Assembly: GCF_036588685.1 (NCBI RefSeq)
Contig: NC_086379.1
Coordinates: forward strand, 4,464,001-4,528,000
DNA: 64,000 nt
Direction of reading: 5' to 3'
Origin: Mytilus trossulus
Taxonomy: Eukaryota
The notes under the pieces are model-generated. The model had not been told where the DNA came from. It worked only from the letters and a program-made list of their open reading frames with translations, and searched no databases. The translations under genes were made by a program, and so were the position numbers. How positions within the stretch are numbered: the stretch's first letter is position 1; each line of letters opens with the position of its first letter. Shown here one piece after another: positions 6,246-46,200 of this stretch.

Positions 6246-6575
6246 TATTGACGGAAACTTGTTCATTTCGCACAGAATTTTAGTATAAACGTGATATAAG
6301 AGGAAAACAACATATGACATATGTAAATGTGGTATACGTGACTTTCATTTTGAGCAATGAATTGAAAGGATTGCTTTTTTGGAATATGGGATATAGCTTA
6401 TCTATCCTTTTTCTCATCAAATAGAGATATAAAGGTAAATTTATCCTAGATATTAACCTGTAAGTTTCTTCATTTATTTTTTTATACGTTAATGTCATCG
6501 TTAAACTGGGCATTTACATTTTTAACACACACAATACCATTGAAATGCTGAAAGACACATTTATTATGTTTCAGT

Positions 6576-7240
6576 TACTATTATCTTGACTTACATCTAG
6601 AAATTGACAATGAGGGTCGGTTGAAGACAAAACTTTACGACAAAAGAGATGATTTCAGCTTTCCAATTGTGAACTTTCCATTTCTAAGTAGCAACATTCC
6701 AGCAGCACCTGCATACGGGGTATATATCTCCCAATTGATACGATATTCCCGTGCTTGCATTTCCTATCATGATTTTCTTGATAGAGGGTTACTGCTCACA
6801 AGGAAGCTATTAAACCAAGAGTTCCAAATGGTGAAGTTGAAATCATCCCTTCGTAAATTTTACGGACGCCATCACGAGTTGGTTGACCGTTATGGAATAA
6901 CCGTTTCACAAATGATATCGGATATGTTCCTTACGTCGTAACTACAATCCCCTTCCCTTTCATGAATTTGACCTACCGAATTAGACTATTTACCGGATTT
7001 GTTATCACATAAGCAACACGACGGGTGCCGCATGTGGAGCAGGATCTGCTTACCCTTCCGGAGCACCTGAGATCACCCCTAGTTTTTGGTGGGGTTCGTG
7101 TTGTTTATTCTTTAGTTTTCTATGTTGTGTCATGTGTACTATTGTTTTTCTGTTTGTCTTTTTCATTTTTAGCCATGGCGTTGTCAGTTTGTTTTAGATT
7201 TACGAGTTTGACTGTCCCTTTGGTGTCTTTCGTCCCTCTT
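6576..7240 (+). mobile_element. 3' fragment of Penelope-like retroelement (RT C-terminus/thumb plus 3' region; Naiad-type inferred)
   Basis: YLDLHLEIDNEGRLKTKLYDKRDDFSFPIVNFPFLSSNIPAAPAYGVYISQLIRYSRAC; ORF stops at 6941 with no C-terminal endonuclease; 3' part repeated at 52506-52683. Confidence 0.75.
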
Positions 7241-7957
7241 TTATCCGATTAAGAAAATTACGATTATCAAAGAAGAAAAATACCATAGAGTTACGATTAT
7301 CATCTCGAATTTTTCAACGGCTATTTTCACAGCGCTTAGACAATTCCAGTGCACCGTTACGATTCAAATATAATGAAATGGTATAGATCAACCTTGCAGC
7401 TGAGTAACTATTGACAAAAGCATGCTACATGTAAGAAAAATGAGTGTAAAGATTTTACCTATATCTACCGTCGCCATATTGGGATAATCGTAATTGCAGT
7501 TACCATTATCTCTTTAATACCAGTGCCATAGTTCCTTGCGCCATTAGATACGAGGGCAAATCTACTAATATATTTTTATCATTATTGTAGACCATACGGT
7601 GATCGATGCATTAAAATTGTCTCATTGTACCTTGATTATAAAAACTTTTGTGACTTGAATACTAATGTTCTGTTAAATGCACTTCTAAAACGTTATTAAG
7701 ATTAGACGTCATTTTAAATATTAAAAAGAGATATACAAAAAAAAATTAACTTTTAATTTTGTTATTTGTAAAGAATGTAATGCGTTTCGCGTAAATTAGA
7801 TAAAGAATGTATCCGGTCCTAATGGAGAAAACGTTGTTACCCATGTGATGAACGTATAAAGCCAATACACGACAAATATCGCTTCAATGAATACAAATTT
7901 ATTGACATACGTTATACTTAAAATAATAAGAATTCAAAATGTAACCTTTTAGAAAAG

Positions 7958-8051: not shown

Positions 8052-8112
8052 ATGTCGCATCTAATGTTTGCAGTGTATTTGGTATTAATTTGTTTCCCAA
8101 CATATACCAGTG
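8052..8112 (+). CDS. Gene 1 exon 1, signal peptide MSHLMFAVYLVLICFPTYTS
   Basis: Hydrophobic leader; donor G|gtaaga, phase 1. Confidence 0.8.
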
Positions 8113-26100: not shown

Positions 26101-29100
26101 AATATATATTATCTATGTACAGCATTTGAGATTAAATACAGCACAATAATAGGTAGTGGCATTTTATGTTTAAAAGGAATTTCATAATCTGTGTTATTAT
26201 TTTTAATATATGACGCCTTTCATATTCTGCTTTTCATGCCACGTTAGAAACGTCAATAATACTTTTACTATGATTTCAGCTTTTAATCTTTATCTGAAGG
26301 GTGGTTCAATGAAAGATATAGACTATGCTGCCAAACCTCAGTATACAGTTACTGCAGTGTGTACAGATGACTACGGACTAGCGACAGAAAAAATATTTTA
26401 TGTCAATGTTGAGAAAAATATTGAACCCGTCATAGATGTTTTGCCAAGTAAGTGTTGTTGAATTTTTTTTTTTTTTTAAAACTTTTCACACGTATTACTA
26501 TCGATCGTGTGAACATACCAACCCTTTACAGTGAAAGTTAATCAACATAGGAAATATTCAATCAATCGTATTTACATAACAAAGTTAATAAGCAAAAATC
26601 ACCAATTAATCAACGTAGGATTTGTTTTATCGATCGCATGAACACCAAAACAAACAAGTATATATCACTAGTTCACCAGTGTGGGATATATTCTATCGAG
26701 TGTGTGATCCATACCAATACCAAAACAAACAAGAATATATCACTAGTTCACCATTGTGGGATATATTCTATCGAGTGTGTGATCCATACCAATACTTAAA
26801 CAAACAAAGTATTATATATCACTTGTAAATATGAAAAAAATGTTATATAACCCAATTAAAAACATTCATTTTCAAAGCAAATGCAATTGATTAAAAGAAT
26901 CTGACCAAATTGGAAAGTTAGAAAAGAACGCGATATTGTTTGATTGATTGATTAATTGTTGGTGATTTAACGCCACTTTTAAGTGTACCTCTTTCGTGGA
27001 GATAAGTTTTTATAGGTGGAGGAAACCTCAATGTTGGGGAGAAAACCACCGAACTTTTATAGGAAAACTGTCAATCCTAGTCAACTAAGATTGGAGTCGA
27101 GTGCAACCCGAGTTATTGAACACACGAATCATTTTTTTTTTCCAGTGAATGATGACAAAAGTCAGCACCTAATTTTGGATATGAGAATTAAGTATATTAC
27201 AATCTGCAAAGACATTCAAAGTTTTAAGCAGGCGTTTTAAAGTTTAAAGTTTAAGTTTTAATACAACTTTTTAAAATTGTTGGGTGTAGATACCAGTTAG
27301 TAAATAACAAAAGTTCCAACCATAAATTCTAGTTTCTGTCTTTAATCCATGGTTGAAATGAGAACATAGCAAAAAAGGAATCTGATGTACAGTAGTTGTC
27401 GTTTGTTTATGTAATATATACGTGTTTCTCGTTTCTCGTTTTGTTTATATAGATTAGACCGTTGGTTTTCCCGTTTGAATGGTTTTACACTAGTAATTTT
27501 GGGGCCCTTTATAGCTTGTTGTTCGGTGTGAGCCAAGGCTCCGTGTTGAAGGCCGTACTTTAACCTATAATGGTTTAATTTTTAAATTGTTATTTGGATG
27601 GAGAGTTGTCTCATTGGCACTCACACCACATCTTCCTATATCTATAGCACTCTGTAAATATTAGACCAGTAATTATTTACCTCGGTACAGTGTATCTAAT
27701 AGTATTATATATTGGAAATGCAGTGCCTTGTATCGTTTCTTTTGTTGACTAGTATATCAAGCTTCTGTCAATATATATAGCTCATAGTATAACTCATGGC
27801 ATGAATGTAGCACTCAGTCAAATGTTTTAAACTTACTCTTTATTTATTAACTTGTTTGATTTTATATCTTGCATTTAAAAAGTGACTATAAGTTTGGACC
27901 TCTCTTGGTAGTGGTGGTTTGGGGGTGGGGAGGGTTTGTGAAGATGTTTCATTAAATTTTCTTTCAATTAAGTTTTCCATGTTCTAATCCATATAAACTT
28001 AAAATGAAAACAAAATTTACAAACACATCAAGAGCTTTTAATGAACTGACACATATACTATCAGCAAATAAGTTTCGATATGAGTTAAATTGGTTCTATT
28101 CTTTTTAAATGCAATACGTGATATAATCACGGGCTTCATTCGGTTTTGTGATTTTTTTTTATATAAAATTGTTTGTTTTAAGATTGTAACACAGTGATGA
28201 CTGCTGTACCAATATTTTGACTATTTTATTTATTATGCCTTTTGTTCACGCATCGTTGTAAATATAACGGAAATTAATGAGAATTTTGTACAAGTTAGAA
28301 GTTTAGCGCTATAAAACCAGGTCGAATGCATCATTTTCTACATTTGAAAATGCCTGTACCAAGTCAGGAATATGACAGCTGTTTAATGTGATTGTCATTT
28401 GATTTTGCCATGTGTTTAGAGACTTTCCGACTGAATGTCCTCATGCAAAGTTCAGTATTTTTCTGATTTTACTTTTTTTCGAGAGAAATTATCGTGAAAC
28501 AATATCTAGCGGTGGTCAAGTATTTGCAGGACGATTGTGAAAGCTCTTGTACCGGATCGTGAAAGAAATCAAATCAAGAATATTAAAGGTCATTAAATAA
28601 TATAAAATAATTAATTACACAGACAAATTAATACTGCCTATCAAAATGGTTTAACATTCTGATCAGTTTGTGAGAAAATCCAGTTTTAGTAATATATATA
28701 ATTTACAAAACAACAAAAGGCTCCTCCACATTTCAATGGCATCAAAATTGTATACAAACTTGATTTTTTTTAAATTCGAATCAAATAAACTATTCTATCT
28801 GCAAATTTGTTTAATGAAGTACATGGTTCTCATAGTTTTTATTGTCCAAACATAATCTAAAACATTTTGAAATGAAATATTAGCACAAAATACATATTTC
28901 GGATCGTCAAAGATCACATACCGTTTTACGAGGATCGTGAAAGATATGATGCTACGTAGACGTTCAAATTATTCCTCAAATATTTGATTATTAATATTGA
29001 AACTTTTGTTTAAATATGGACCTCGAAGAAGAGACAAAATAAACTGTTACGCAAAAGGACATTCCATATTATCGCTTACTCAAGATATAAGTAGGTTAAC

Positions 29101-31147
29101 AGTAGATTTTTTGTATACAAGGACAAATTATGAAAATATCAGAGCGTATTTGACACTTCTAGTAAAACCATTGATATTACAGACGTTCAACCAATATACT
29201 ATCATAAGTGAATTTTACAAGACATTTCAGCTTTTGCGCTTTAATTGGTATTCTTTCGTCTGTAATATCATGAATATGTTGTTCTCTCATTTGAAATCAT
29301 TCCACATCTGCTACGTTGTATAAAGAGATACATATAACTTAAGAAAGTACTGTTGCACAAAATGTTGGTTATAATTCAATCGCAAATGTACCAAATGTGG
29401 GAACTGAATTTTTTACACTGATTTAAACTTTTAAAAGTTATCTTTTAACCTTCGATGTGAAATTGTTAAATTTAAGAAAAAAATATCAACATTCGTTCTT
29501 TTCACAATAGTTACAGGTATATCAAGTGGTAAAAGAAATATTGATTTCTGATTATTAAGTCTGGTCACGCATTATCTTTAACAATCAAAATAATTGGTTG
29601 TCTGATCAAGTTTTATGAAAATTTCGTAATGAACGGTTTTAATGGAATAACATACCTGGATTTTGCTGTTCTTTCGGACACACCAAAGATTTAATTTAAA
29701 ATATATCATGATTAATTGATTTTTTAAAAATTAACTCCATAGACATGTATTGTGGATTTTTTTCATAAAAGACTGCATATTTTCTTAATCATATTGAATA
29801 TATAGTTATGTTGAGGAAATTGAATCATTTTGACAGACATATTTTTTTTCGGATTCGATCCGCGTTTCGAAAATTCCGTCATTTTATCACAAACTCTTGG
29901 TTAAAATTTGCAATTAATTACATTCACGATCCGGAACCGAACTTTCACGATCTGCTACCAGAACTTTCCCGATCGTCCGCAATACTTTACCACCGTTAGA
30001 TATTCTCTCACGATCATTTCTCTCGGTAAACCAATTGACACACTTATACTTTTTTTGTTATCTATTTTAAAATAAATTACTTGACTTATAATTTAGGTTC
30101 ATTATGAATAAAACAATATTGGTATGCAAATTATTTCGAGGTGTTATTACAGATGCTGTCATATTTGGATTAGTTGGCGGAGTTACAGGATTGTTTGTTG
30201 TTGTTGCACTCGTCATTGTGTTCATCAAGTAAGACATATTTCAATAATCTATATACAAGAATATTATCATACATTGAAAATTAAATAGCATGTACAAAAA
30301 TTGTGAAAATTAAAAGCGCATCACTCAAGTAAGGTATACAGCAATTAACTTGTAAAGTACAAATATTATCAAATGAGTGTCTGAGGTACTAAGGACATGT
30401 ACCAACAAGAGTACGAAAACCATATTAAGATAAAAGTTCGAAAAAAGAGAAAAACGCGCGTCGGACGAAGCATATCCATCAACTCGGCTACTTAAGTAAG
30501 TTAACAAAACATCAACTCCTAAACTACGATATAATATGGATATTTCAGTTTCTTACTTTTTAAAATTATTTCGTAACATTGGTTGCAGGCGATCGTCGTT
30601 TTTTAAGAGGATCCAGGACAGTACTCAACAGCAACAAGTCTATCAGGATCTTAATCCAGTCAGAGAAGACATTAATTCACCATATGATGTAATGCATACA
30701 AATAATTTGCCAATGAATGAAAATGATATCGGATTGGAGAACCAAGTCTATCAGGATCTAACTCCAGACAGAGAAGACAATAATTCACCATATGATGTTA
30801 TGCATACAAATACTTCGCCATTGAATGAAAATGATATCGGATTGGAGAACCAAGTCTATCAGGATCTAACTCCAGACAGAGAAGACATTAATTCACCATA
30901 TGATGTTATGCATAAAAATAGTTCACCATTGAATGAAAATGATATCGGATTGGAGAACCAAGTCTATCAGGATCTAACTCCAGACAGAGAAGACATTAAT
31001 TCACCATATGATGTTATGCATAAAAATAGTTCACCATTGAAAGAAAATGATATCGGATTGGAGAACCAAGTCTATCAGGATCTAACTCCAGACAGAGAAG
31101 AAAACAATACCCCGTATGATGAACTCCACATTAAAAATACGTTATAA
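8052..31147 (+). CDS. Gene 1: single-pass type I membrane protein (signal peptide, CCG domain, cadherin-like repeats, TM, tandem ITAM-like tail), 604 aa
   Basis: join(8052..8112,9190..9270,14150..14311,16110..16188,19903..20063,21789..21965,24078..24196,25048..25219,26280..26447,30153..30228,30589..31147)=1815 nt; all GT-AG, phases 1,1,1,2,1,1,0,1,1,2, no internal stop; cadherin-like linkers NSAPYFTN, NTAPEIKN, NIEPVIDVLP. Confidence 0.75.
8825..9070 (+). repeat. Interspersed repeat fragment
   Basis: 3' part recurs at 34705-34800, 5' part inverted near 38815-38860. Confidence 0.55.
9190..9270 (+). CDS. Gene 1 exon 2 (AVACGVKTVGGRNLGGGTYTNWDNTTT)
   Basis: cag| acceptor, |gtaagt donor, 81 nt phase 1-1. 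Confidence 0.8.
10866..12181 (-). mobile_element. 5'-truncated non-LTR retrotransposon (CR1/L2-group RT), decayed
   Basis: LDFSKAFDTVPH, SGVPQGTVLGPILF and LFADDCLLYR motifs; stop near 11462; (CAGATA)n-like 3' tail. Confidence 0.92.
13775..13970 (+). mobile_element. Helentron-associated (Pearl/MgE-like) non-autonomous fragment
   Basis: (CGGAATKA/TT)n microsatellite followed by gggtaaaactatat. Confidence 0.45.
14150..14311 (+). CDS. Gene 1 exon 3 (…ILDCCGLLSGFNVEIVGLGTIYLQIWRQ…)
   Basis: tag| acceptor, |gtgaga donor, 162 nt phase 1-1; within ORF 14134-14346. Confidence 0.85.
14394..15232. mobile_element. Hairpin-ended non-autonomous element (Crypton-like), related to 5965-6245
   Basis: ~125 bp palindrome 14397-14521 centred on agggcggagccct; TTCTGATTGG at 15075; shared termini. 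Confidence 0.55.
16110..16188 (+). CDS. Gene 1 exon 4 (ADALTVHSLPIDAADQPTILENDMLGW)
   Basis: ttttttcag| acceptor, TG|gtaaga donor, phase 1-2. Confidence 0.85.
16182..19130 (+). repeat. 24-bp satellite (CTGATAGGATGGTAAGCTTCATTAT / …GATGTCAAGCGTCACTAT), ~110 units
   Basis: Visible tandem array starting at the exon 4 donor, degenerate at both ends, interrupted at ~17710-18015. Confidence 0.97.
17725..18016 (+). mobile_element. SINE-like repeat inserted into the satellite
   Basis: Inverted diverged copy at ~21240-21570. Confidence 0.65.
19388..19697 (+). mobile_element. Helentron-associated non-autonomous element (Pearl/MgE/HINE-like)
   Basis: Starts AACAAGA, (GACG/GAAC)n microsatellite, short terminal hairpin, ends ATAAAAA. 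Confidence 0.75.
19903..20063 (+). CDS. Gene 1 exon 5 (YTSGTDMVPYDNG…GRSYAINFVTAV)
   Basis: aag| acceptor completes the TGG codon; |gtgagt donor; phase 2-1. Confidence 0.85.
21240..21635 (-). mobile_element. SINE-like repeat, same family as 17725-18016
   Basis: Reverse-complement similarity seen by eye. Confidence 0.6.
21789..21965 (+). CDS. Gene 1 exon 6, cadherin-like repeat 1 N-half (NSAPYFTN…FTDDNKDD…)
   Basis: tttcag| acceptor, |gtaagt donor, 177 nt phase 1-1. Confidence 0.85.
22115..23625 (+). repeat. 37-bp minisatellite (TAGACAGCTGGCTAACGTACAATACAGTCTTAAACAA), ~40 units
   Basis: Direct tandem array in gene 1 intron 6. Confidence 0.97.
24078..24196 (+). CDS. Gene 1 exon 7, cadherin-like repeat 1 C-half (…GEYTLEYSVKDQC…IGVKNT)
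   Basis: tttag| acceptor; phase-0 donor |gttggt required by the next exon. Confidence 0.8.
25048..25219 (+). CDS. Gene 1 exon 8, cadherin-like repeat 2 N-half (APEIKNTMISHNIKEN…)
   Basis: tag| acceptor, |gtgagt donor, phase 0-1. Confidence 0.85.
25476..26132 (+). repeat. 39-bp minisatellite (GAGATCTCGTCATTGAATATCTATCTAGGTACACCGTTT), ~17 units
   Basis: Direct tandem array in gene 1 intron 8. Confidence 0.95.
26280..26447 (+). CDS. Gene 1 exon 9, cadherin-like repeat 2 C-half (…IDYAAKPQYTVTAVCTDD…NIEPVIDVLP)
   Basis: tttcag| acceptor, |gtaagt donor; IDY…Y…C-TD resembles the cadherin LDYE…Y…ATD pattern. Confidence 0.85.
26640..26825 (+). repeat. ~75-bp tandem duplication (~2.5 units)
   Basis: aaacaaacaag…tatatcactagttcacc…tgggatatattctatcgagtgtgtgatccataccaatac repeated. 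Confidence 0.85.
26859..27815 (+). repeat. Intronic segment paralogous to 56206-56882
   Basis: Colinear similarity (roughly 75% by eye) over ~680 bp once the 27377-27648 insertion is removed. Confidence 0.9.
27377..27648 (-). repeat. Young insertion of the 3676-family repeat
   Basis: Almost identical to the reverse complement of 3676-3946; absent from the paralogous site near 56710. Confidence 0.85.
28180..28478 (+). repeat. Abundant interspersed repeat
   Basis: Related copies at 46570-46815 (+), 39945-40070 (-) and 47875-48065 (-). Confidence 0.7.
28480..30025. mobile_element. Non-autonomous TIR DNA element with ~85 bp imperfect TIRs
   Basis: cgagagaaattatcgtga… at the left vs …tcacgatcatttctctcg at the right; internal GGATCGTGAA motifs. 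Confidence 0.7.
30153..30228 (+). CDS. Gene 1 exon 10, transmembrane helix (AVIFGLVGGVTGLFVVVALVIVFI)
   Basis: tacag| acceptor, AA|gtaaga donor, 24 uncharged residues followed by KR. Confidence 0.85.
30589..31147 (+). CDS. Gene 1 terminal exon, cytoplasmic tail with 108-bp/36-aa tyrosine-motif repeats
   Basis: gcag| acceptor phase 2; ORF 30536-31147; repeat starts at 30635 and 30743 (period 108). Confidence 0.9.
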
Positions 31148-31880
31148 AAATCAATTAACACATGAAATCCTGAGGATATACTGAAGAAATTTACGATACA
31201 TTAGAACTAATAATATTGTTGTTACTTCATTCTATTATTGTACCCGTTTATTATTTCAGTAATTGTACTATGACTTACATGTTGAAAACAATTATACTAA
31301 CTTTAACGGTGCAATATTTTTTATGGATATAAAAATCGACCCCTGGCGTTGCTCTTACTTATCTCAACATAAATTTCATCCACAATCAAAAAAATATAAA
31401 TAATACTTCAAACGTTATATACCACGCTGCAAAATAAGGAACAATACTGCATTATCAAAATCAAGATTAATTGTTCATTAGAAGCAGCTTTTTATACCAC
31501 GTCTTGAGGTGCAAGCTGCACGTTGATCCTTAGACAAAATAGCTAATCAAGAATTTGATTAACAATGAATTGAACCTGGACTTCACTATATGTACAAAGT
31601 GCAAAAAGAAAAGTTAATGAACTAAATGACTACAATATATATGATTTCAGGTGTCGTTGTTGATTTACAATAGGGTTTTTTCAAATCTGATATTATTGAC
31701 TGTTTAGGACTATAACATGTATTATGCAAAACGTCGCTTCACAACGATCATGAATGTGAGAGGCAGAATAGAGAGACACGTAATAGCATGATGATCTGTA
31801 AAACACATCCACTATTTTCCCGATCCTAACTTATATTAGTTCGCAGTGATCTTCTTTTTTAATTTATGTACTCTCTTGAA

Positions 31881-31886
31881 AATAAA
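31881..31886 (+). terminator. Candidate polyadenylation signal of gene 1
   Basis: AATAAA ~730 nt after the stop, followed by T/G-rich sequence. Confidence 0.3.
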
Positions 31887-33510
31887 TAAACGTAAGTAAC
31901 AGAGTTTATTATATGTCTGTTAAATACATTTTAAACTTTTTGTGATTGTGTTATATTAATCTGAAGGTTAAACCCTTTCTTGAAATAAATTGATTGGAAA
32001 AGGAGGAGTTGAAATACGTGTTTTTATATATTAATTATATAACATCAACATACGAATTACATTTGTTTCTTACCAATGTGTGTTACAATCAGTTATAGAC
32101 AATTTACTTTAGTTTAGATCTCAGAGCTAAAACTACTTGCAAGTAATAATTATACATTAAGTACAAAAACAAAGGTGTATTCACCTACAATGCTTTGATT
32201 TCAAATAAAATAAGAAAGCGTTATTTGTAGAGGGAAATCGCGAGACAAAATTATATTTCGGTAACCTGAAAAATCACAAGTGACATCAATACAACAATAA
32301 ACGAAAGAAATAAAAGTACACGAACCTTACACATTACAATAAATGAAAACAGGAGGATATTCAAGTGGTACCTTTCGGGTAAACAATAACCACCTCGTAT
32401 AAGGCAACCACTGCGTTGATATAGATTTTGGCGAACAAAGAAGAAGAAAGGTCTGGGCATTCAACATAGTGTCATTCGGGAAAATCTTTTATTTATTTAG
32501 TATAAAAGGTGAATTAATATAAGATTGCAAACTCCTAATGAACAACAAAAGAATTTGAATTGACTGCTTGTTTGTTATCTCTCAATTAGTGCTCATTTAT
32601 GATATTTGCGGGTGTTGGATTTGAAATTAAAACGACTGCGGTGCATTCGATATGGTTAAACCTTTAACCTGTCTTAAACCTTAAATGTGTTTTCTCTCTC
32701 ATTTTAATGAGAGAGAAAAACCAGAAGTAATGAGGCAGTAATAGGAGAGAATAAATAAATGTCGTATAAAACTTGCAATTATAATTAGCTGCTGAAATCA
32801 GATAGATCTGTAAACATATTTGATTTTTATCCAAAGTATGAAACAACACGATCATTTATTAAAATATCCCTTTGTTCTATTTGTTCATTAAGAATATACT
32901 TTCATAGTCTTCACACATTTGATAACACAAGACTTATGTTACGGTATTCACGGAAAATATATCCTAATGCACGTAAGAAGCATGATACATTTACACATCG
33001 TGATCGTGAAAGTCAACACTAGGGGAGATATATTGATTATGGTAATTTAGTTAAGATCTATGATGACGATGAAGATGATGATCTCTTTAGCATGTGTGAC
33101 CTATTATGGTCTATTTTTACACAGTATGAATTAGACGTAGTGTTGTTTTCAAGGCCTTTATACCGCATTTTCTTATAAAAAACAATATTTGTAAACTTTC
33201 ATACCTCCCTCCTTCCCTTCCCAAAATTGTTGGTATTCCTTTTAGACATTAATTGCTTACCTTTAATAACAGAATTGTTCTGGTATATTTAAAAATGATA
33301 GTGTAATGCCAAAATCCATAAAGATCACTGCACATTCCATGTAATTGATTTTTTAATAACACTTTATACAGTTCTTTGATCATTGATTTATTTGAAATTT
33401 AAAAAAGATATAAAAAATCCTCGAATTTGGATTCAATTTTATATGAAAAAAGCGATCATTGTAAATTTCTAGATTTCGATATTTTTGTGTAACAGAATAA
33501 ATTGTATAGG

Positions 33511-33630
33511 AATAAAGTCATCATAGATACAAGGATTACAATTGTATATTTACGCGAGACGCGCGTTTATCCTTCACAAATTTCATCAGTGACGCTCGAA
33601 AAAAAAATGTTAAAAAGGCCAAATAAAAGA
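33511..33630 (-). mobile_element. Hammerhead-repeat fragment (second subfamily, as at 63400-63540)
   Basis: Minus strand gcgtcaCTGATGAaatttgtgaaggaTAAAcgcgcgtc; stem II and GAAA mutated. Confidence 0.7.
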
Positions 33631-33644
33631 AAATTTGTTGGATG

Positions 33645-34455
33645 AGCTAATATTTAGTTCCTCATTGTTGATGTCCCTATCTTTTACGATGATGTTCCCT
33701 TTCTTGTGTGTTAATTCGCCATCACCATTTGCCTTGTCCTTGGATGTAGTGACGTCTTATGATTCAGTGAATGTTATTCATATGTACGTGGTATGATAGT
33801 TAGTCAGACTACCAATTAGATCAAATTTTTATTGCAATTTGTTCATAGATACAAATATTTGGTTTTGAACTCTAACTGCATCTTTAAAACCCTTACTTCA
33901 AACGAGATACAACACCTTTTGTTACAATGGTGTTGCTTTTAGAGTTTTGAACTAACATAACATTAATTCCACCTATCTATCTTAGATTCAAGTTCGATAT
34001 TTTACTAGCTTATAATTTTTTGTATTGCTCAATATATACTTAATCTACTAATAATTTGCACGTAAGACGTACTGAATTAGAATCATGGTACTTTTGATAT
34101 CTTTTTACACCACTGGGTCGATGCCACTGGTACACGTTTCGTCCCCGAGGGTATCACCAGCCCAGGAGTTAACACTTCTGTGTTGACATGACAATCAATA
34201 AATAAATGTGGTCTTTTTTATAAAAATCCTGTTTACAAAACTTTGAATTTTTCGAAAACTAAGGATGTTCTTAGTCTAGGCATAGATTACCTTACTTAGC
34301 CGTATTCGGCACAGATTTTTTTGAATTCTGGATCCTCAATGCTCTTCAACTATTATATAAATATTCTGATATGAACGTCGCTAATGAGTCTTATGTAGAC
34401 GAAACGCGCGTCTGGCGTGCTAAATTACAATCCTGGTACTTTTGATAACTATTTG
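33645..34455 (+). mobile_element. Decayed Penelope-like 3' end followed by a 348-nt hammerhead-containing pLTR/retrozyme-like monomer
   Basis: Faint RT-thumb similarity 33650-33940; direct repeat tggtacttttgata at 34086 and 34434 bounds the monomer. Confidence 0.6.
34375..34418 (+). ncRNA. Type I minimal hammerhead ribozyme, core variant CUAAUGA (probably inactive)
   Basis: ACGUCG-CUAAUGA-GUCUuauguAGAC-GAAAC-gcgc-GUC(34412)-UGGCGU; stems I-III pair; G5 replaced by A. Confidence 0.75.
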
Positions 34456-36599
34456 GGTAAAGGTAAAGAAAAAGGCTTGTATGTTATGTCTTGATAGCTT
34501 CATGTAGTCTAATATTAACGAGGGGTTTCACTTCTTAGTAATGGGTATATGTGGATATGCCAACAATATGGTTCATAGTTTTTCGAGACTATGTGACACT
34601 ACTTTTTAATTTATTATTGACATTGTATATCGATATGCATCGTTATTTCATAATGCTATATTGATTTGTGGTATGTTCTACATATCTTATATACATATGG
34701 GATACGTTTCCCTCAGTTTTAGTTTGTTATCTGGATTTGTTTTTTTCTTTATCAATTGATGCATTTTGAACAGCGGTATACTATTGTTGCCTTTATTTAT
34801 TGGAAATCAAATATAAATAACCAATTGTCATGATTGTGCTTTTTAAACAATTCATGGACATTATATGCAAATAAATATTAAGTCCCTGAATCTGTGCATT
34901 TACAAATCAAAATATTTTGTAAAAGTAGAGGTAATCATGGTAATTATTTGCTATTTATCTATAAATTGTGGAATCAAATATAAATGAATGCTAATGTCTA
35001 AATTTAAATATTCATTTGGTGTTATGTACTACATGTATGCAGTACATGCATTTATTATTTTATATTGCTGAAAATGCAGATGAGCATCGATATTTACAAT
35101 GAAAGCAATCACCACCAAAAAGTAAAGTAAAACACAACTGAGGTACACTGTTTACCCGAGAGTCCATAAAACTAAAAGTCACGATGTTCTCTGTTTATAG
35201 ATTCACTAGGTCAATGAGGGTCGGTAATATGAGGGTTGGAATAAATTTCAAGATTAATGTTGATAATACTAAGACTATTGTTAATAATTCCAAGAAACAA
35301 TATCCTTCTTTTTCGTTGATACCGCAACATAATTCGCAAAATGGTTTTCTTGTTTGCCTAAAATGAAACAAAGACCTTTCAATTGATAAATCAGGCCGCC
35401 TATCTTTTGATAGCAGACGACAATCTCTCATTTTCAGTAGCACTATTTTTAATAAAGGATCTGTCATCTGAATATTAATAACGGTCATCATTTTAATTTA
35501 AAAGAATAATAAAAACAATTATTTTAGGGTCATGTCAAGTCCATGCAATTAAAGTATTTTAGGTTGTTTATAATGAAAGGCAACAGAAGTATAGAAAGTA
35601 CTATTTTTACTGGCAGTTATTTCAAAGTCAATAACAGCTAAATAACAAATCATGCATCTCTAACTAAACAGAACAAGTTGAAGAGCTTTGTGAGCAAAAA
35701 AACGACATCAACATATGAAACGTCTATCGTCAACTTTACTTGATTGAGTTCAAAACATACCTTAGTTGTTGCTTAAAATTAATGAATTTATAAACACCCT
35801 ATTTCAGATTTTTTTTTATAAAGCATGTCACTAAAAAGATACACTAAATACTAATCGGATAATACACTAAGGCACTAAGTCCACCAGCAGCCTATTAAAA
35901 ATTAGAACAACACTTTATTAACTACATGAGGAAAAGTACCTAAAAAACAAAATCTCAAACACTTCCATAATAGCAAGTGCACATTTTCAACATGTATTGA
36001 AGCATTTATGATGGCTTTATGAATCTTGTTTGAAATTTAAATGAGCAAATAACAAAAACATAGAACAATCTGCTCTCTGTTTCAATCATTCTAACGCTGA
36101 TCTTTGACCGCTAGTTATCGATATCATACAAAGCGATTTAGATCTTCGTCTACACGACTAAATGTTTTTGTTCATTTACCTATCTAAACAGAAATAAATG
36201 TCTGAATTACATAGGACTTTAAATAGCTGTTCTGCGGAAAGTCAGATAATTTCCCCACTCGGAATATAACCCGAACGAAGGATGTAAATGAAAATCATAA
36301 AATCTATATTTTTTACAAACGTAATGAAATTTTCTATAGTGAATATAATTATGTAGTTTGAAACAAAAATACTACTTCATAAGTCCGTGTTGGTGTCCGT
36401 GTAACTTAAAATGACGTAAAGTAACGTTCTTAGTCGTTTTTCCTCGTATTATGTAGGACAGAATATTTGTGTCAAAAGCGTTGTTTAGAAATTCCGATAC
36501 GTCTGATCATACATAACAAACATAAAGTATTAATTGTGATATATTTACGCAATTCGAAGGTAATAGTGGTGCTTTTGAATTCTGCAAACGGGATAATTG

Positions 36600-37006
36600 T
36601 TTTGTACATACGTGTTTTATAACATATCTTATTTAAAAGTCCTTACATAAATTCTTATTACAGTATAAGAAACCAATGTTGCAACTACTGCCGCAAAAAT
36701 ATACCTTATATTGGGTTTTTCTATCATTGTTACATGTATGTTATACTTATAGATCGTAGTATCGATAAGTATTACGGTACTTATGCATGTTATACATCGT
36801 TCGCGTTTAAATATAAATTTCATAAAAAAAAATAAGTGCGATTTTCACGGTTTTAAGTACTTTAATATGTTTAAATACGAATATTTAAATAAGGTTTGGA
36901 AAGAGAATGACTGAAACGGTTACCTCACAATGGTTTCTTATACTGTAATAAGAATATATGTAAGTACTTTTAAATAAAATATGTTATAAATCACGTATGT
37001 ACAAAA
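36600..37006. mobile_element. Fold-back/MITE-like element upstream of gene 2
   Basis: ~80 bp inverted repeats 36600-36680 and 36928-37006. Confidence 0.65.
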
Positions 37007-37221
37007 AAATACTACTGATATACTGATGATGCATGTATATATATATGTGTGTTTTAAATTTTTACTTTAACAAGACACTTATTTATTTATACTTTCTTAT
37101 TTCCTGTCAGAGTGATGTCGTACAACTTGTAATTGTTTCACAGAAGTATGGTGTGATTTATTATGAGTGAACGCATATTAACTTCCTCGTTTTATTTCTT
37201 ATATGAACATGTCCGCCTGAG

Positions 37222-37285
37222 ATGGCCTCAATGATTCGTTCGGAGACATTGGTTATTGTTATTTTATTCTCAGTAAAAATAAAAT
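37222..37285 (+). CDS. Gene 2 exon 1, signal peptide MASMIRSETLVIVILFSVKIK
   Basis: Hydrophobic core, T|gtaagt donor. Confidence 0.75.
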
Positions 37286-40200
37286 GTAAGTATGATTAAA
37301 TCATTCCGTATTTTTTTCATGACTTAAATCGACACTTTGTTTATGTTACGATCGTCATCAGCATCTTGTGTATTTATACGATGTGTTTGTGTTATACGAA
37401 ATCAGAAATTACACCAGGTTTATCATTTATAACGCCAGTCACTTGTTTCGTGACTTTACTGTGACTGAAACTTTATGAGAACAACAGCAAGGTTCTTAAA
37501 CAGTCGGAAGGTAAATATTTACACATTAAAACATATAACGACGGCATACTAGAATATTTTCGTGGTCATAATTAGCATCTTGTTTACATATATATGATGT
37601 GCTTGTGTAATATGAAATCAGAAATTGCACAAGGTTTATCATTTATAACGCCAATCACTTGTTTCGTACACAAAATACTTTACTGTGGCTTGAAGTTAAT
37701 GAAAACAACAGCAAGGTTCTTGAATAGCCGGTATGTAAATATTTACACCGTAAAACATGTAACGACGACATACTAGATTCTTCTTCTTGGTTGATTTCTA
37801 AAAAATGACAGGCCAAAGCATAACAAACTGAAAACCTAATTTGGAATGTAGTCCCTCCAAACTCATGAAACTATACGAGAACAATTTCATGCCAACATTT
37901 AGTTTGTGCTTTAATTGGTTTTCTATGTAAGATTAATTTCCACCATCAAATTATTGAAAATACGTAAAAATAATCTAAAACACATAAAACATGTAAAAGG
38001 TGCTTAATTTTCTGCATGTATTTGCTCACAAATATAATCAGTGCTTTCTTTGTAAGTAAAAATATCTGTTGAAAAATAGGGCTTCCACCCCAATTTCTTA
38101 TATTGATTGAAATGTCGTCTTTGCATATTCAGTTAAATAAAAACAAAAATATAATTTTGAACTGTATTGCCATATTTTCAGGATATTGTGCACAACATTC
38201 TTCATCATTTAATTTATGAATTGTAGCTTTAGCATTTTCAACGAACGTCGCTGCATTTGAAAATGCTAAACCACTGTGCTCTTCAGACTACCAAGTTGCC
38301 GGTAAAGATTTATTTAACAGCTGTCAACCCAAAAATTGTGGAAAAATAGACTTAAAGGGGCATACAATCAACCGCTCAACGGTTAATGACACAACGCAAG
38401 TTGTATGGATTAACGCATACGTAGTCCATTCATCAGTTATGGAATATAAAGGTAAATATCATTACCAACAATGCAGTGATTTAATTACGGGACACTTGAT
38501 TTTTAAAAATGGGAAATACAGTTTCCCCAAAAATGTATCTGTAACGTTTCATATTTCGTATACACTAAAGAAGAATTATTTGAAACAAATTTGTTAAACA
38601 ATCTGCATCATAGATAGATAGTTTATTTCTCATAAAACCATGCAAGTACAAAGGTTACAGAGAAGTTGAAAAATAATAGACATAAAAAACAAAAAATGCA
38701 TTTAAAATGTATACTTAGTCGCACGGCAAAACGTTAAACATAATAATCCCAATAAAAAAGCAACAAAGATACCAAGCTTTTAATTTAAAACTACTACAAA
38801 TCCAACGAGAATAACAAATTACATGTATTTGAGTTAGACAAGTACCGTGACACGTCTTATCGTAAAAAGAATTTACACTAAAAAATAAGAGAAATAAGGC
38901 AGAAGACCATTAGTTAAGGAAGAAAAGAATCTAAAAATATTGATAGTTCAAGGAGCTCCTCTTCCAGATATTTCATTTTGAAATATGGCAGGAAAAAGCT
39001 TACTCGGACTTTAACGTTATATTTGTATTGGAATTATTTGGGTTTTAAATAACAAAATAAAATGAAGAATCTGCTTAAATTTTAACAAACGACCTTTTAT
39101 TAGATGATAAGTCTTATATAGAAAGATAAATGGGTGGAATAAGGCAAACATATTTCACATTGAATTGTTTGAAAAGAAGCCAAGAAGTCTGGCCATCTGA
39201 CACAATTGCCAAAAACTCAGCTAAGTACATCCTAAACATGTTTAATAATTTTTAATTTTTGAAAAGCATGAAAAACGTAGTAATTTTAGCAAAAAATTGT
39301 CTGAAACGCTTTTTTTTTATCGCTTTCAACATATCAAGCTTTGCATGACAGAAACTCACTTTGTCCAGTAGAGAATCAGTTTACAATTGACAATAACAGA
39401 TTTTTGTAAAATGTTTTTACTAATAGGATCAAATCGTTAAAAGAAATTTAAGAGCAATAATGAACCATGTCATAGCTTTAGATTACACATGTTTTGGTTG
39501 TTGTATCAAAATAAAAAAGTAGCTATTTTAAGATTTATTCAACTTTTCATTCCGTAGTTATTATTACTAGATATAATACTGCCAAAGGTAAGGCTAGCTA
39601 TTGATTACTTGAGAGGAGATGATTATGTCAGATGTTGAATTAACTATTAAAACATTGAGCTGCTTTGTTAATAAGTCATTACAGACATTTAAATAGTAAA
39701 CAAATTGTAGACCAGTCATATTTATTAATCTAGCTATGATGTTGATAGTGCTTACTCCTTGCCCTTAAATTATTAACAAAATTTCTAGCATTACGTTGTT
39801 CTATTGATAGTCATCACTATATATAACAGTGAAGTTATTGTTTCCGACCAAGTTATATCAAACACTCTTTTATTAAAATTGTTATCCATTTTTTTTTTAC
39901 TTATTATCTATTTAAATAAGACCCTATATTTAAGGTTTAGATAGAAAGTAAAATCACAAAAATACTGAACTCAGAGGAAAATCAATTCGGAAAGTCCATA
40001 ATCCATGGCAAAATCAAATAACGAAACGCATCAAAAACGAATGGCCAAGAACTGTCATATTCCTGACTTATAGTATAGCAGATTTCTTTTCAAAACTACA
40101 ATCATAACATTCTTATTAACGATCGAACCAACAATTTAATTTATACAACACATAAATGAAATAGCAAAGTCAGTTCAATTTCATCCAAAGTATAAGGGAC

Positions 40201-43200
40201 GTTTTCAATTCGATGTAAATTTGTATAAGGGACGTTTTCAATTCGATGGAAATGTGAGCTAAGAAGCAAGTGTTTAAGCAAAAGTTTTTTTTTCTAAATA
40301 AAACATGGAAATTCCAACTCATGTTTTTCTTTCAGTTATCTTTTATATGTTTTTTTCATATCTTGAAGCAAACTAAACGGAGAATCACGAAAGATGAAAC
40401 AGGGTCAAATGATTTAAATTTGATAGATTCGGAAAAGTGTATATTGTATATTTTTAGTTTATAAAATCTTAAATATTAATTTGTAGATTTCGATGATTAT
40501 TTATGCTGATATTAAAAGATATCCAAATGTAAAAAAATATATTTTAAATATAAATTTCAATTTCAGCTCAAAAACCGTTTTACTAAATGGAATCGTACTG
40601 TGTTTCCCAAATTTCGATCCTGACCGGTTTGATTTACCATAAAATAAATAAAACTAAGTCCTATAGTGCTACAAAAGCTGAAAAGGTAAACAAAAGCGAA
40701 TGCTTTATATAATGAGATGATCTGAGGTATCTTTGAAAAACAAATGGCATTAATAATTTTTTTTTTAAAAGCGAAATTGTATGTTAATATCACTAAATAG
40801 ACTTTAAGAAACACTCTTTACTATTGAAATCAAATCAATTCTGTTTATATTTTTTTTTATAAAAAAAAAACTCACATCTTCCTTTCAACGAAAACAACTC
40901 CGAGGCCATTTTACATGTTGTTTTCTAATTTTAGTTTTGAAATATCATTGGCATGTTTTAGGTTGTTATAACGTAAAAGTACAAAATGAAACTGTCCACC
41001 AGCTGAACCAACATAAGAATGATACAGATAATGATGTACTGAAATGTTCAAGGTTTTGTAAAAGTAAAGGTTATGCACAAAGAGGATATGTTATTTTACT
41101 TCAGGTAATTATTTTTTTCCTACAATTTAAAACCTAGGAAACCCAAATAAAACCAATACAAATGTAAGATAAGAGTTCTAGTCAGACCTTTTCAGACCTT
41201 TCCCGTCATATTTTAAAACTCAAATACTCCAAATAGAATCTCAGTATCCAATCAATATTATTAGCTTTTTGTTCCTTAACAGAAGCTTTTCAACTTAAAG
41301 AATTAAATTTGATTTCTTGGTTTATAAAATTTCATTTTGTTCATCTACTACCCACAAAAGACTAAATGACACAAACATAAAAACTATAGATCACTGTACG
41401 GTCTTTAACAATGGGCAAAGCCCATACCGCATAGTCAGGAATTTAAAGGCCCCGAAATGAAAATGTAAAACAATTCAAACGAAAAAACTAACGGCCTATT
41501 GCATGTACCAAAAAATGAACAAAAACAAATAATAACGATAGGAAACACTGAATTGCAGGTACCTGACTTTGGACAGGCACGAACATACAGTCTGTGGCGG
41601 GGTTTATCGTGTTAGCGGGATCCCAACCCTGCCCTTACCTGGACATTGATGTAACAGTATATTATAAGGAAAAGTTATAAAAATCAGTTGAAAAGGGTTT
41701 AACACAGATATAGATACAATTACACGAGGTGAACATGACCGGGTACTTGTATTTCTCAACAACAGAAAGACATTAAGTACAGATCTGAGTGTACCCGCAG
41801 TTTCTGAATGCTAGTTCAGAGCCACTAAAAACTATTAGAAAAAATAATGCATCTAACACTAAATTATCAATCAATACACATCCAATGGATTGAGTGTAAT
41901 AACGTTATATAAAAACACGATCTTATGCAATGCGAAGGTATAGGAATCGACAGATTATAGGTCAATGAATGTATATGTATATATAAAATTAATACTAAAT
42001 ATGCTTTTAATTTTCTGATACCCAAATAATTGTTTATACCAATAAAATCAATATTCAATGATCTTATTACAGTGTTGAATGTGTAGGCTTTAAGAATAAG
42101 TTTATTTCAAGAATTGATAAGTTTACCAGGAATATTACTAAACTTTCGTAAAAATGACGATGTGTTATCTCGTTTAAAATATGTTTAAGGTTCCACTAAA
42201 GTCAAAATATAGGACACTTCATAAACATCTAAACTTTGCCTGTATTTTTCCACCTATAAGGAATAAAGTCATAAACTATGAGAACATATTATGTTCATTT
42301 AAGCATACTTTACATATACACACTGTATAAATTGTAAATAAACTTGAAATTGTTATGTTGTGGCCAAACCGGTTCTTGGGGGTAAACAATAAATTTTCAA
42401 AAAAATCTGGAGGTCTGCAAGACGACTTAATTTGCTTAAAATTGGTATGAACGAATACTATTACATGGAATGCAGGGCAAGCGCATGTTGATTTTTTGTA
42501 AAATGTATTGATTTTCAAGTTTCAGTTAATTTTATGTATCTAAGTGAACGAATATCGAAGGTACAATACAGAAATTGAACAAATATGCCATTAAAACATA
42601 TGTATGTGACAAATCAGCTTCCGCTTGCCTTGCATTACATGTAACAGTTTTCGTCCATACCAATTTTAAGCAAATTAAGTCGTCTTGCAGGCCTGTAGAT
42701 TTTTTTGAAAATTTAGTGTTCACCCCAAGAACCGGTTTGGCCTCAACATAACAATTTCAAGTTTATTTACAATTTACACAATGTGTATATATAAAGTATG
42801 TTTAAATGAACATATGTTCTCATAGTTTATGACTTTATTCATTATAGGTTGAAAAATACAGGCAAAGTTTAGATGTTTATGAAGTGTCCTATATTTTGAC
42901 TTTAGTGGAACCTTAAACCAAACCAAACTTCAAAATAAAATCTTTTTATCTATGGAAGAATTTAGTAAAGGTTTTAAGTAATTTGTAGTACCTTAATCTA
43001 TGGCTTGATTATATACAAGTTATTCATAGTCAAAATCTAAAACGTAAATGCAGAAATTGGCATAGCGAACGAGTTGTGAAATATAAACACCATTAGATAT
43101 TGCCAAAGGAATATCACCAACCAATTAGGGAAAATTAACAATAGAAAAATTGTTCCTTTTGTCGTTAATTTTAATGTGGAGTGTTCCGTGTAAAACCGAA

Positions 43201-46200
43201 GTGCCTAAAACTAGGAAAGTACAGCTTTAATTTAAAGTAAGTTCCTTTTGGTAGATTTCAGCAGGATATTTAGACAATTTTTGATTATTCAACAATAATT
43301 ATTATGATCAAGATTCGGTAAGTTTTGTTTAATTTATCAATAAAATGCAATTTAGACGGGTCTGTACTGAGTTTATTTAAAAACATTGATTCATAACAGT
43401 ACAGAGTCTGGTATATAAACAATTAGTGCCCATAGGAATATTCACAACCTGCCGATAAACTTTGGTGACGAAACATACATTTTTATTTTCAAGAAAATTA
43501 GCAGCTAAAATTATATCATCACACCTCCAGTAAATTTATATAGCATATTTACCTCTCGCGTTAGAGAAGAATGCTTTGAATGAGTTGCAGCAAATATATT
43601 TCATTCAGATTTCCATAACAACCATGTAATGAAATAGGAAAACTTGTGTTTGTTAAGATTTCGTGGAAGTGAAGTGTAACAGTAAAAATGTCAAAACTGT
43701 CAACAGAATCAAAATGACCGTCAAAAGCACGTATTTTTATCGAAATTATCAAAAGAACTTTTTTCACTCCATAAACAATTAATTCCACTATTTTCATGTA
43801 TTTTATTACAAAAGTTTATGGTAACCTCTTTGGAAGTAGTTAAGGAAATTGCTAAAAGCACTGACAGATTAGTTTTAGAACACTTACTAGCCGCCGAGAT
43901 GAAACCATGTTTGAATGTGTTTTGTGTAGTTTTAGGTAACCGATACATATACTATCGTTGTTTCCTACAGAAAATAATGCTGTCACTAAGCGTACCAATA
44001 TTTAAAGATCGTAAATCGATTAAGAAGCGACATATCAAGGAACTAGGTACAGCATAAAGGTATTTTAAATAATATGATATCGACGTATAAAAAAATGTGA
44101 TAATTGAAATCAAAGCAAGCAGTAATGAAAAGTTATTTAGTTCTGAATGTAAAATCCTTGAACTTGATTTACAAAAATAAAATTAAATGTTTTATAGGGT
44201 TTTAAATGCTACTGTGCAAAAAGATCATTAGGCAAATGGACGAGTTTAGGACAAGTGGATGAAGTGTCTACTAGTGAATGTTCAAAAGATTGCCCTGGTG
44301 ATGAAATCGATCGCTGTGGAGGGACTACTATTAAGATTGTTGCTGCATATGAATTCAAGGGGGATAAAAAAGAAGGTAGTGTTAATTGTTATAAGTACTC
44401 CCGTTTACAAAATGTTATTCATCAAAGTACTGTTTACCACTCTACTAACAGAAAGAGAGATAAGATTTTTCGTAATCAATTTGAAATCAAGTTTTACATG
44501 TTTTATGAATCCTGTTTTTTTTTTTTTTTTTGTAAAATCGAAATAAAGTCTTGCTGATAAAAAAAAAAAAAAAAAAAATACAGTTTGCATTGATTCTGTT
44601 CCCTTCTCAAAATAAATGTAATCGTACTGTTGACATAAGCGTTAATTGTATCGTTTACTATGATAAATCGAAGTCAACAGTTTCGAAACTTTGTTTGACC
44701 CGTTGTATCTTCTATGAGGGCGTACAGGGGTATCTGCATGGAAGAACGCGAAATAAAACTGCCATCCCACGATGAATGAACAATTAAATTGCCTTGCACA
44801 CACAACAGGGAGGATTGACGCTGCTTTGCTTTGGAGAAAAAGTAAAGTCACATAGACAGTAATGTTTCGTTGTTTCTTAAAATGTACCGAAAGATAGTAT
44901 CGTTGTTGGTTGCATTCCATCAAATATGGTTCATTACTAATTAACGTAATTTGTTTAGTGATGTTAAATATTACGAATGTTTAAAAATAGTGTGTTATTT
45001 ACTCTAATGCTAACAACTGTTAAGCCATGGTGTCAAATAAAATTAGACGGTCTTTGAATGGTGCATGAGCAGAAAAATTTATTGAAAAAAAATCAAATTG
45101 TATTTTACATAAGCCTAAAATTATTTTTATTTTTTTTCTATTAGCAAAACAATAGATATCTGCCTTTAAAACATTTTAATTGAAACTATACGCTGTTAAA
45201 ACTTTTTGTATTGTGATACTATTTTAACTGATACTTTTCGTAAACTTTTAGATGAAGATATACACCTTGGAAAAAAATGTTTTTATACAGCCCCAAACAG
45301 ACGAGCGCCATCAACACTAATGCCTGGGAACTGTCTCCAGAAATTGAAGTTTAAGTGTCAGATGGTTGATATTTCAGGTATATTAAATCCTTTGATTAAA
45401 ATCTATAGTTTAAATCAATAGTATAAGGAAATGAACATTGTGTACTGATCATGATGTATGTAAACTGTATGCTATCAAAAACACTTGAAAAGAAAACTCA
45501 GACAACTTACAAACTAAACAGCAAAACTATGTTGTGTTTTTATAACAAACATCTAATTAAAAGTATAATTATATTCCTGGTACCTTTGATAACTATTCAC
45601 ACCGTTAGATCTAAGATAAAGCCAACACATCATGTTGAAGCTTCTCGCGATGAATTTAATGATACCGACAGCTGATTTATATGAACAACTTGAACTTATA
45701 AAAATCAACATAAATTTGTAAAACAAAAAAATATCCAAACGAAAAAAGTATGCCATATTTTAGCAGAACCGTCAGTGTATTACTATTAATTGTTAGCGTT
45801 GTTTAACATCTTATTGAATGGCGAAAAGATTAAATAACTGAGAATGCTTTTGCCATTTGTTTATGGCAATGAACAAATACATTTCACTAAACTTATCAAA
45901 ATTATTTTTATGTCAAGGTGGTTCGAAAAATGTGTTAACCAAACGATGTTATTCCATACGTTTAAATTGGTACGATGCACAACAGACGTGTTTACAAGAA
46001 AAAAGTTATCTTCCAACGTATACACCATCAAACGACATATGTTTTGCAGAAAAAGACGTTGACGAGATGAACAATTGGCACAATGCTTTCGTAAAAGAAA
46101 GAATTGTTTGGGAAACAGGTAAGAATGTCTAGGATTAATAAATGCTACTAAAAAGTGAAGAAAAGCACCCAATCTGAATAAATGTGAGCACAATGAAATA

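Follow-up and report, generated by a model that had tools for sequence, protein, structure and literature searches.

The final exon of gene A, a predicted receptor gene of Mytilus trossulus, encodes a cytoplasmic tail of five tandem dual-tyrosine modules. Gene A lies in a 64,000-nucleotide stretch of contig NC_086379.1 (positions 4,464,001 to 4,528,000 of the forward strand), hereafter called the window, in whose numbering positions are given unless a contig or locus is named. Our analysis suggests that gene A is a chimera that combines the ectodomain of a cadherin-like gene on another contig, C11, with an anchor-and-tail cassette of the type found in a neighboring lectin-type receptor gene, W1, that its tail was expanded to five modules, and that the modules act as extended ITAMs (immunoreceptor tyrosine-based activation motifs) docking a Syk-type kinase. 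Taken as a whole, we place this proposal just on the favorable side of even. The anatomy and origin of gene A are highly probable, and Syk docking with a dosage effect, judged from the motifs, is about evenly balanced. The direction and timing of the fusion, the splicing of the cadherin exon to the anchor, the phosphorylation, the binding partner and the effect of copy number are what we infer.

Structure of the tail exon

The tail exon and its units are as follows; copy B denotes the two-unit tail of W1.

30589..31147, plus strand: terminal exon of gene A, following an AG acceptor, with a juxtamembrane basic stretch, five dual-tyrosine modules and a TAA stop
30629..30736, plus strand: unit 1, first-type, the orthologue of the first unit in copy B, from which it differs at 6 of 108 nt
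30737..31060, plus strand: units 2–4, hybrids at informative sites, with a 5′ part of the last-unit type and a 3′ part of the first-unit type
31061..31147, plus strand: unit 5, last-type, the sole unit with a strict YxxL-x10-YxxL pair (1 of 75 nt differs from copy B unit 2)

A 76-nt transmembrane exon (30153–30228) leads into the tail exon in phase 2, and its position before the tail exon agrees with the cytoplasmic location proposed in an earlier reading of this DNA from its letters (the sequence-only reading). The translated tail has 185 residues, including 10 tyrosines and 38 acidic (D/E) versus 12 basic (K/R) residues. Tandem Repeats Finder reported a period of 108, 4.3 copies, 96% matches and a score of 836 for 30635–31101, and the modules read YQDL-x10-YDVM four times and YQDL-x10-YDEL once. 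The repeat had been described exactly in the sequence-only reading, with its ten tyrosines, acidic character and nearly identical inner units. Units 2–4 differ from one another at 1–5 nucleotides per 108, and unit 1 differs from them at 11–13. The 108-bp repeat is not due to chance. A Yxx[LIM]-x6-12-Yxx[LIM] pair arose in 1.2% of shuffled single 36-aa units (20,000 shuffles), and the strict L/I pattern arose in 0.8%; since the ten motifs are copies of one module, they do not amount to ten independent pieces of evidence. The tail is identical in the RefSeq model XP_063446582 (M. trossulus). Pfam matches on the tail (LptD and GPHR_N) were rejected as repeat artefacts, and its look-alikes in the protein atlas all scored under 0.9.

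Probable expansion of the tail from two to five modules

In each of units 2–4, all six informative 5′ sites were of the last type and 11 of the 12 3′ sites were of the first type. This hybrid pattern points to unequal crossing-over between two ancestral units, by which the tail likely grew from two to five modules. The recent expansion suggested in the sequence-only reading was thus borne out, with near-identical inner units and a mechanism visible in the hybrids. Chimera models contain five modules in the present genome, two in two M. edulis assemblies and none in M. galloprovincialis. The YEN tyrosine that precedes the first module in other tails has been lost from the present allele.

Contigs of 138 nt with the same 30-mer at both ends were found in the RNA runs X2, X6 and X24, and they differed from the window by 0–1 letters versus 11–12 from copy B; run X3 contained the same unit type in two pieces. 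The 138-nt contigs suggest that animals other than this one, recorded under three organism labels, also have hybrid units. Tails of at least three units would account for these contigs, and a converted two-unit tail would give the same contig.

Predicted product of gene A

When the M. edulis homologue was mapped onto the window, gene A comprised 11 exons (8052–31147), all with GT-AG borders, and a single open frame of 604 aa. The predicted product is a type-I single-pass protein in which a signal peptide and an unnamed N-terminal domain are followed by about two weak cadherin-like repeats and then by the anchor and tail. XP_063446582 lacks the first 124 residues of this product.

8052–8112, 9190–9270, 14150–14311, 16110–16188 and 19903–20063, plus strand: ectodomain exons of gene A, with GT-AG borders, an open frame and the phases of the C11 gene
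21789–21965, 24078–24196, 25048–25219 and 26280–26447, plus strand: the remainder of the nine ectodomain exons, with the same properties
30153..30228, plus strand: transmembrane exon (phase 1 in, phase 2 out), common to copy B and homologous to the anchor of a leucine-rich-repeat (LRR) protein of M. californianus

A cadherin exon was joined to the anchor of gene A in five NCBI models from three species (three entries counted as one gene). The cadherin family PF00028 scored 22.8 bits in the chimera versus a cut-off of 28.8 and 57–85 bits in the donors, and identity across the common part was 85–94%. Structure prediction gave a mean predicted local distance difference test score of 33, both for the single sequence and with a 10-row alignment. 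The protein-atlas matches of the chimera were unnamed eukaryotic clusters (0.90) and, as a lead only, a lectin-like bacterial family (0.84). Non-LTR (long terminal repeat) retroelement fragments were present upstream of gene A (6552–6941) and in intron 2 (10910–12205).

Such a tail on a cadherin-like protein with no catenin-binding region had been called unusual in the sequence-only reading. The lack of that region was confirmed, in that no catenin-binding cytoplasmic-domain Pfam family was found in the chimera models or donors scanned, but the oddity has a probable explanation that had been missed, namely exon shuffling, by which a tail native to a lectin/WSC receptor cluster was combined with an ectodomain from another contig.

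Origin of the ectodomain

Exons 1–9 of gene A recur with identical phases in the cadherin-like gene on C11 (G000:C11:48.345-48.372 Mb). Beyond these nine exons, the C11 gene has at least three further cadherin repeats, its own, different anchor and a Cys-rich tail with 0–1 Tyr. This long donor gene, 965–977 aa in full-length models and annotated as 'protocadherin Fat 3/4-like', is recorded in M. edulis, M. galloprovincialis, M. trossulus and M. coruscus and in one unnamed record that is 55% identical. DNA homology to C11 sets in at 7526, some 500 bp ahead of the start codon, and runs to 26826, intronic minisatellites included.

26826..26854, no strand assigned: fusion junction in intron 9, where homology to C11 stops and homology to copy B starts (about 26845)

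We considered whether the C11 and C7 halves might stem from two misassembled haplotypes and rejected this, because the C11 gene is complete, anchor included, and copy B has an ectodomain of its own.

In an ectodomain tree of 12 rows, all of which were kept and one distant row of which served as the root, the chimera-type ectodomains of three species formed one group (99/97), and the chimeras and the edulis-complex donors grouped without M. coruscus (99/97). We infer a single duplication of the ectodomain, which would fall between the M. coruscus split and the divergence of the edulis complex. The C11 donor of the present genome had a long branch in this tree (0.088 versus 0.01–0.03 in its relatives); its N-terminal domain shows many changes, and ATC stands in place of its first ATG. 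The intronic minisatellites common to gene A and the C11 donor lie at 16349–19123 (25 bp), 22119–23595 (37 bp) and 25477–26132 (39 bp); one M. edulis model translates the 39-bp minisatellite as coding sequence, which is probably an annotation artefact.

Origin of the anchor and tail

The anchor and tail of gene A belong to a tandem segmental duplication that also carries W1.

26854..46532, plus strand: first copy of the duplication (anchor, tail and next ectodomain), blocks of 68–87% identity
56200–56880 plus 65301–91126: second copy, blocks of 68–87% identity
37222..54167, plus strand: ectodomain exons of W1 (signal, C-type-lectin-like halves, WSC and stalk), part of a 513-aa open model
64575–64637, 68520–68595 and 69054–69324, plus strand: second stalk exon, anchor and two-unit tail (copy B) of W1, beyond the window in window-equivalent numbering

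W1 is an intact gene of 513 aa, the 3′ part of which is covered by RefSeq XP_063443630/1; Pfam scores for WSC and the C-type-lectin-like halves were weak. Nothing corresponding to the W1 stalk exon before the anchor is present in the intron of the chimera.

A phmmer search with the two-unit tail against 1.84 billion representatives returned only four proteins: W1, the M. edulis chimera, a WSC-type protein of M. coruscus with two units, and the M. californianus LRR protein, in which a single unit follows the same anchor (55% over 74 aa, E 6e-23). The M. coruscus WSC-type model is without an anchor exon. The presence in M. coruscus of this two-unit tail on a WSC-type protein, alongside the long donor, suggests that the tail on a WSC protein predates the chimera. 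On the evidence of these gene models, one anchor-tail cassette stands behind three unrelated ectodomain types (LRR, lectin/WSC and cadherin-like). A homologous tail exon with one unit was also found at G000:C3:29.197 Mb (L007:1501-1692), with a long interspersed nuclear element (LINE) upstream; its anchor exon was not found within 20 kb, and neither was its ectodomain.

Neighboring receptor genes also have multi-tyrosine tails. The gene just upstream of the window (L011:3540-8273) combines a WSC-like exon with an anchor exon of related type, and its tail, which is a different one, contains seven tyrosine motifs. The gene W2 (L013:3850-5134) has an ectodomain 73–98% identical by exon to that of W1, a different anchor and a 12-tyrosine tail with a threefold YDQS repeat; a relative of W2 lies at C7:2.70-2.72 Mb. 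Homology of the gene A module to the longer tails of the upstream gene, W2 and the C7:2.72 Mb gene was considered and was unsupported by alignment (24–33% identity). W1 may itself be a crossover chimera. The W1 intron between the stalk exons contains an LTR retrotransposon (56978–64055), which we take from its motifs to be BEL/Pao-like, with broken gag/pol frames and terminal repeats that are 94% identical.

Signs of constraint on the chimera

We compared the substitutions in gene A with those expected of a neutral copy. In such a copy of the ectodomain, about five nonsense changes would be expected (P(0) 0.007), and the 604-aa frame is intact; amino-acid branch lengths were 0.04–0.08, versus 0.19 per codon expected under neutrality. 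The lack of nonsense changes and the low amino-acid rates suggest that constraint has acted on the chimera during most of its existence. The ratio of nonsynonymous to synonymous rates (omega) was 0.39 for the anchor and tail ends versus copy B (101 codons).

Similarity of the modules to known tyrosine motifs

When four divergent tails were aligned with MAFFT, both tyrosines of the module, D+1, D+2, L+3 and the upstream YxN tyrosine were invariant, and the spacer residues varied. The paired tyrosines, the conservation of which the sequence-only reading had made a check on its proposal, were thus kept in the homologues found. The last residue of the module is Ile in all four units of the distant tails (two of M. 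coruscus, one of M. californianus and one of the C3 paralogue), and the strict YxxL-x10-YxxI form occurs in the three units of M. coruscus and M. californianus. Met is restricted to the first-type and hybrid units of the edulis complex, and Leu occupies this position in every last unit of the edulis-complex tails. The Ile of the distant relatives suggests that the conserved element is an extended ITAM-like pair and not YxxM, and the module likely works as an extended ITAM, to judge from these motifs.

Candidate partners are encoded in the genome. Six of the 54 SH2 matches were checked against PDB, at the level of exons, and the best matches were to the Syk N-SH2 at C1:86.37 Mb and to the Syk C-SH2 at C9:15.64 Mb. 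A tandem-SH2 locus at C4:57.23 Mb (L058:809-8635) that had been considered as a Syk candidate proved to be a Csk-like kinase gene; it has two consecutive complete SH2 exons, each best matching CSK, which represent either tandem domains or alternative exons. Clusters of SH2 exons at C11:33.98-34.43 Mb (8 matches) and C7:77.52-77.57 Mb (5 matches) suggest expanded families of SH2 proteins.

In the proposed mechanism, ligand binding or clustering at the ectodomain would recruit a Src-family kinase to the acidic tail, and this kinase would phosphorylate both tyrosines of a module. Syk would then bind the phosphorylated pair and initiate ERK/phagocytic signaling, and five modules would provide higher avidity or a lower threshold than one or two.

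Evidence against the proposal and alternative explanations

Several observations weigh against the proposal. The strict YxxL/I pair is present in one of the five units of the gene A tail and in all five only if Met is allowed, as four modules end in Met. The spacing of 10 in every unit lies outside the classical ITAM range of 6–8, although within the extended x6-12 range given in PMC6994640. D/E at −3 of the first Tyr had no match in the five tails scanned; in units 2–5, an acidic residue is found at −4. Because of the spacing and the missing acidic residue, the modules are not filed as classical ITAMs and are claimed only to work like one. The homologous tails were found by similarity, which biases them toward kept tyrosines, and the columns of the motif scan were chosen by pattern. 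Changes among the inner units are mostly non-synonymous (two non-synonymous and no synonymous changes in 75 nt). The LRR fusion is known from one gene model, and a search of 50 kb of the related LRR cluster in the present genome gave no matching tail. The ectodomains of chimera and donor had dS 0.178, dN 0.077 and omega 0.43 (95% 0.29–0.66; 391 codons), a pairwise value that alone is compatible with relaxed selection on one branch. The ITAM-like interpretation of the tail in the sequence-only reading is partly supported, by the conserved tyrosines, +3 hydrophobic residues and spacing and by the existence of Syk-like SH2 exons, and is weakened by the single strict pair, the missing acidic −3 residue and the spacing of 10.

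In an alternative that we consider unlikely, the modules would serve the tandem-SH2 phosphatase SHP2, or a mixed SH2 scaffold, as a bis-phosphotyrosine platform, and the receptor would damp or diversify signaling instead of firing Syk. SHP2 tolerates long spacers, and the genome has an SHP2 orthologue (E 3e-35 to PTPN11). The second tyrosine fits an immunoreceptor tyrosine-based inhibition motif (ITIM, SxYxxI) in unit 1 of M. coruscus and in M. californianus, one match in each tail, and copy B as well as the M. edulis, M. coruscus and M. californianus tails have a Grb2-type YxN site next to the module. However, none of the five window units matches the ITIM pattern [SIVL]xYxx[IVL] or that of the immunoreceptor tyrosine-based switch motif, TxYxx[VI], the YxN site is lost from the present allele, and the first tyrosine is YxxL in every unit. 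Recruitment of PI3K p85 by the YDVM sites, with the expansion multiplying PI3K docking, appears quite improbable. p85 prefers YxxM, of which the tail has four, raised from one by the expansion, and the four YDVM sites noted in the sequence-only reading have Met at +3 as stated there; its YxxM/PI3K interpretation is nevertheless weakened, since Met is not conserved among the homologues and is a derived variant of a conserved hydrophobic position that is Ile in each of the four units that the three more distant tails contain, and Leu in the last units of the edulis complex; PI3K binding may still have arisen secondarily. A role of the motifs as Yxx-phi sorting signals for AP-2-dependent endocytosis rather than as phosphosites is very improbable: lectin receptors are often endocytic and all 10 tyrosines match Yxx[LIMFV], but the fixed ten-residue spacing, the acidic flanks and the YEN tyrosine are kept across divergent homologues, and single sorting signals need none of these.

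The RNA evidence and some gene models raise a different alternative, that the chimera yields no real product or is a decaying duplicate, that the tail functions only on the lectin gene and that the extra units are a neutral coding minisatellite. RNA contigs joined 30228 to 30589 across a GT..AG intron (360 skipped) in three of the four runs mapped to 30000–31330, so that the transcription of the exon, which the sequence-only reading had listed as a check, was seen as anchor-tail splicing. Both contigs that extended upstream of the anchor carried the W1 stalk exon and not the cadherin exon, and no join between the cadherin exon and the anchor was present in the RNA contigs. When RNA was mapped more widely (12 kb), intronic repeats swamped the exon joints, and the cover of the cadherin exons is attributable to donor or chimera. 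One M. galloprovincialis chimera model ends just before the first module, which suggests that the tail is dispensable in at least one allele; in another, a LINE endonuclease frame follows the chimera-type cadherin exons, with the join at the same exon boundary, which is either a mis-annotation or a haplotype without the anchor exon. The introns of gene A are full of minisatellites. Against this alternative stand a frame kept intact over 11 canonical exons, amino-acid rates well below the neutral expectation, chimera models in three species, the copying of about 500 bp upstream of the start codon along with the donor, and a 3′-untranslated-region piece in run X2 that is 96% identical to copy A. 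We regard it as rather unlikely.

Comparison with known systems

The proposed chimeric, ITAM-like receptor was compared with known systems. The closest precedent for the origin would be FCGR2C / Fc-gamma-RIIA, in which a chimera arose by unequal crossing-over and a long-spaced, non-canonical ITAM was gained as a separate exon (PMC6563257); Fc-gamma-RIIA functions with an ITAM spacing of 11–12 residues (PMC6563257). FCGR2C joins close paralogues (PMC6563257), whereas the mussel chimera has an unrelated donor from another contig and a motif that was also tandemly amplified. For the mechanism, by analogy, the closest precedents would be oyster CgIgR and Drosophila Draper. CgIgR, likewise a bivalve single-pass receptor with a YxxL-x(n)-YxxL tail and a TPY-xx-L-like end motif, is reported to bind CgSyk via this tail and to drive ERK and phagocytosis (PMC6994640), and molluscan Syk has been described as activating (PMC13344425). 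CgIgR has one motif, a spacing of 8, an acidic −3 residue and an Ig ectodomain (PMC6994640), whereas the mussel tails have a spacing of 10, up to five modules, Met for Leu/Ile in four of them and three unrelated ectodomains. The Draper-Src42A-Shark system is an invertebrate axis of Src-family kinase, ITAM and Syk-family kinase on a single-pass receptor and served as the template for the proposed mechanism; Draper has one ITAM plus NPxY and an unrelated ectodomain (PMC4503800), and the mussel tail has no NPxY match.

The Hydractinia Alr receptors are also clustered invertebrate receptors with diverse tails, some with ITAMs or ITIMs, in a genome with Syk, Shark and SHP, but Alr combines one ectodomain type with many tails (bioRxiv 10.1101/2022.03.04.482883) and the mussel cassette combines one tail with several ectodomain types. 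CD3-zeta resembles the gene A tail in having several tyrosine modules, the number or sequence of which shapes signal strength; its three divergent ITAMs are fixed (PMC11779709), whereas the mussel modules are near-identical and vary in number between related genes and alleles. Classical cadherins and Fat-like protocadherins share cadherin-like repeats in the ectodomain, but neither the chimera nor the donor has a cadherin cytoplasmic domain, the donor has 965–977 aa and the chimera keeps about two repeats. Tandem tyrosine repeats within one protein also occur in CagA (EPIYA) and Chlamydia Tarp. Gene A differs from the precedents in the unrelated donor from another contig, the use of one cassette on three ectodomain types and the tandem amplification of the module. 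No paper describing such a tail in Mytilus was found among titles and abstract starts, a search that left most subscription journals uncovered and is weak evidence of novelty.

Significance

A broader picture, possible but rather doubtful, is that of a portable two-exon cassette (anchor plus dual-tyrosine tail, phase 1 entry) plugged behind LRR, lectin/WSC and cadherin-like ectodomains, with the module number (0–5) as a heritable gain dial, gene A as a young, expressed gene capable of multivalent Syk activation, and alleles of differing copy number that segregate among wild mussels. In that broader picture, gene A would act as a 'chimeric antigen receptor' of natural origin, through which a cadherin-type contact leads to multivalent activation of Syk. 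With 0, 1, 2 or 5 modules occurring naturally on a single cassette, ITAM multiplicity would become directly testable outside vertebrate lymphocytes, and the Ile-to-Met change would provide a test of whether an ITAM box can drift toward PI3K binding. Gene A would also offer an example, datable and resolved to the base, of how new signaling receptors could be built in an invertebrate that lacks adaptive immunity, by swapping the recognition half, keeping the cassette and amplifying the motif.

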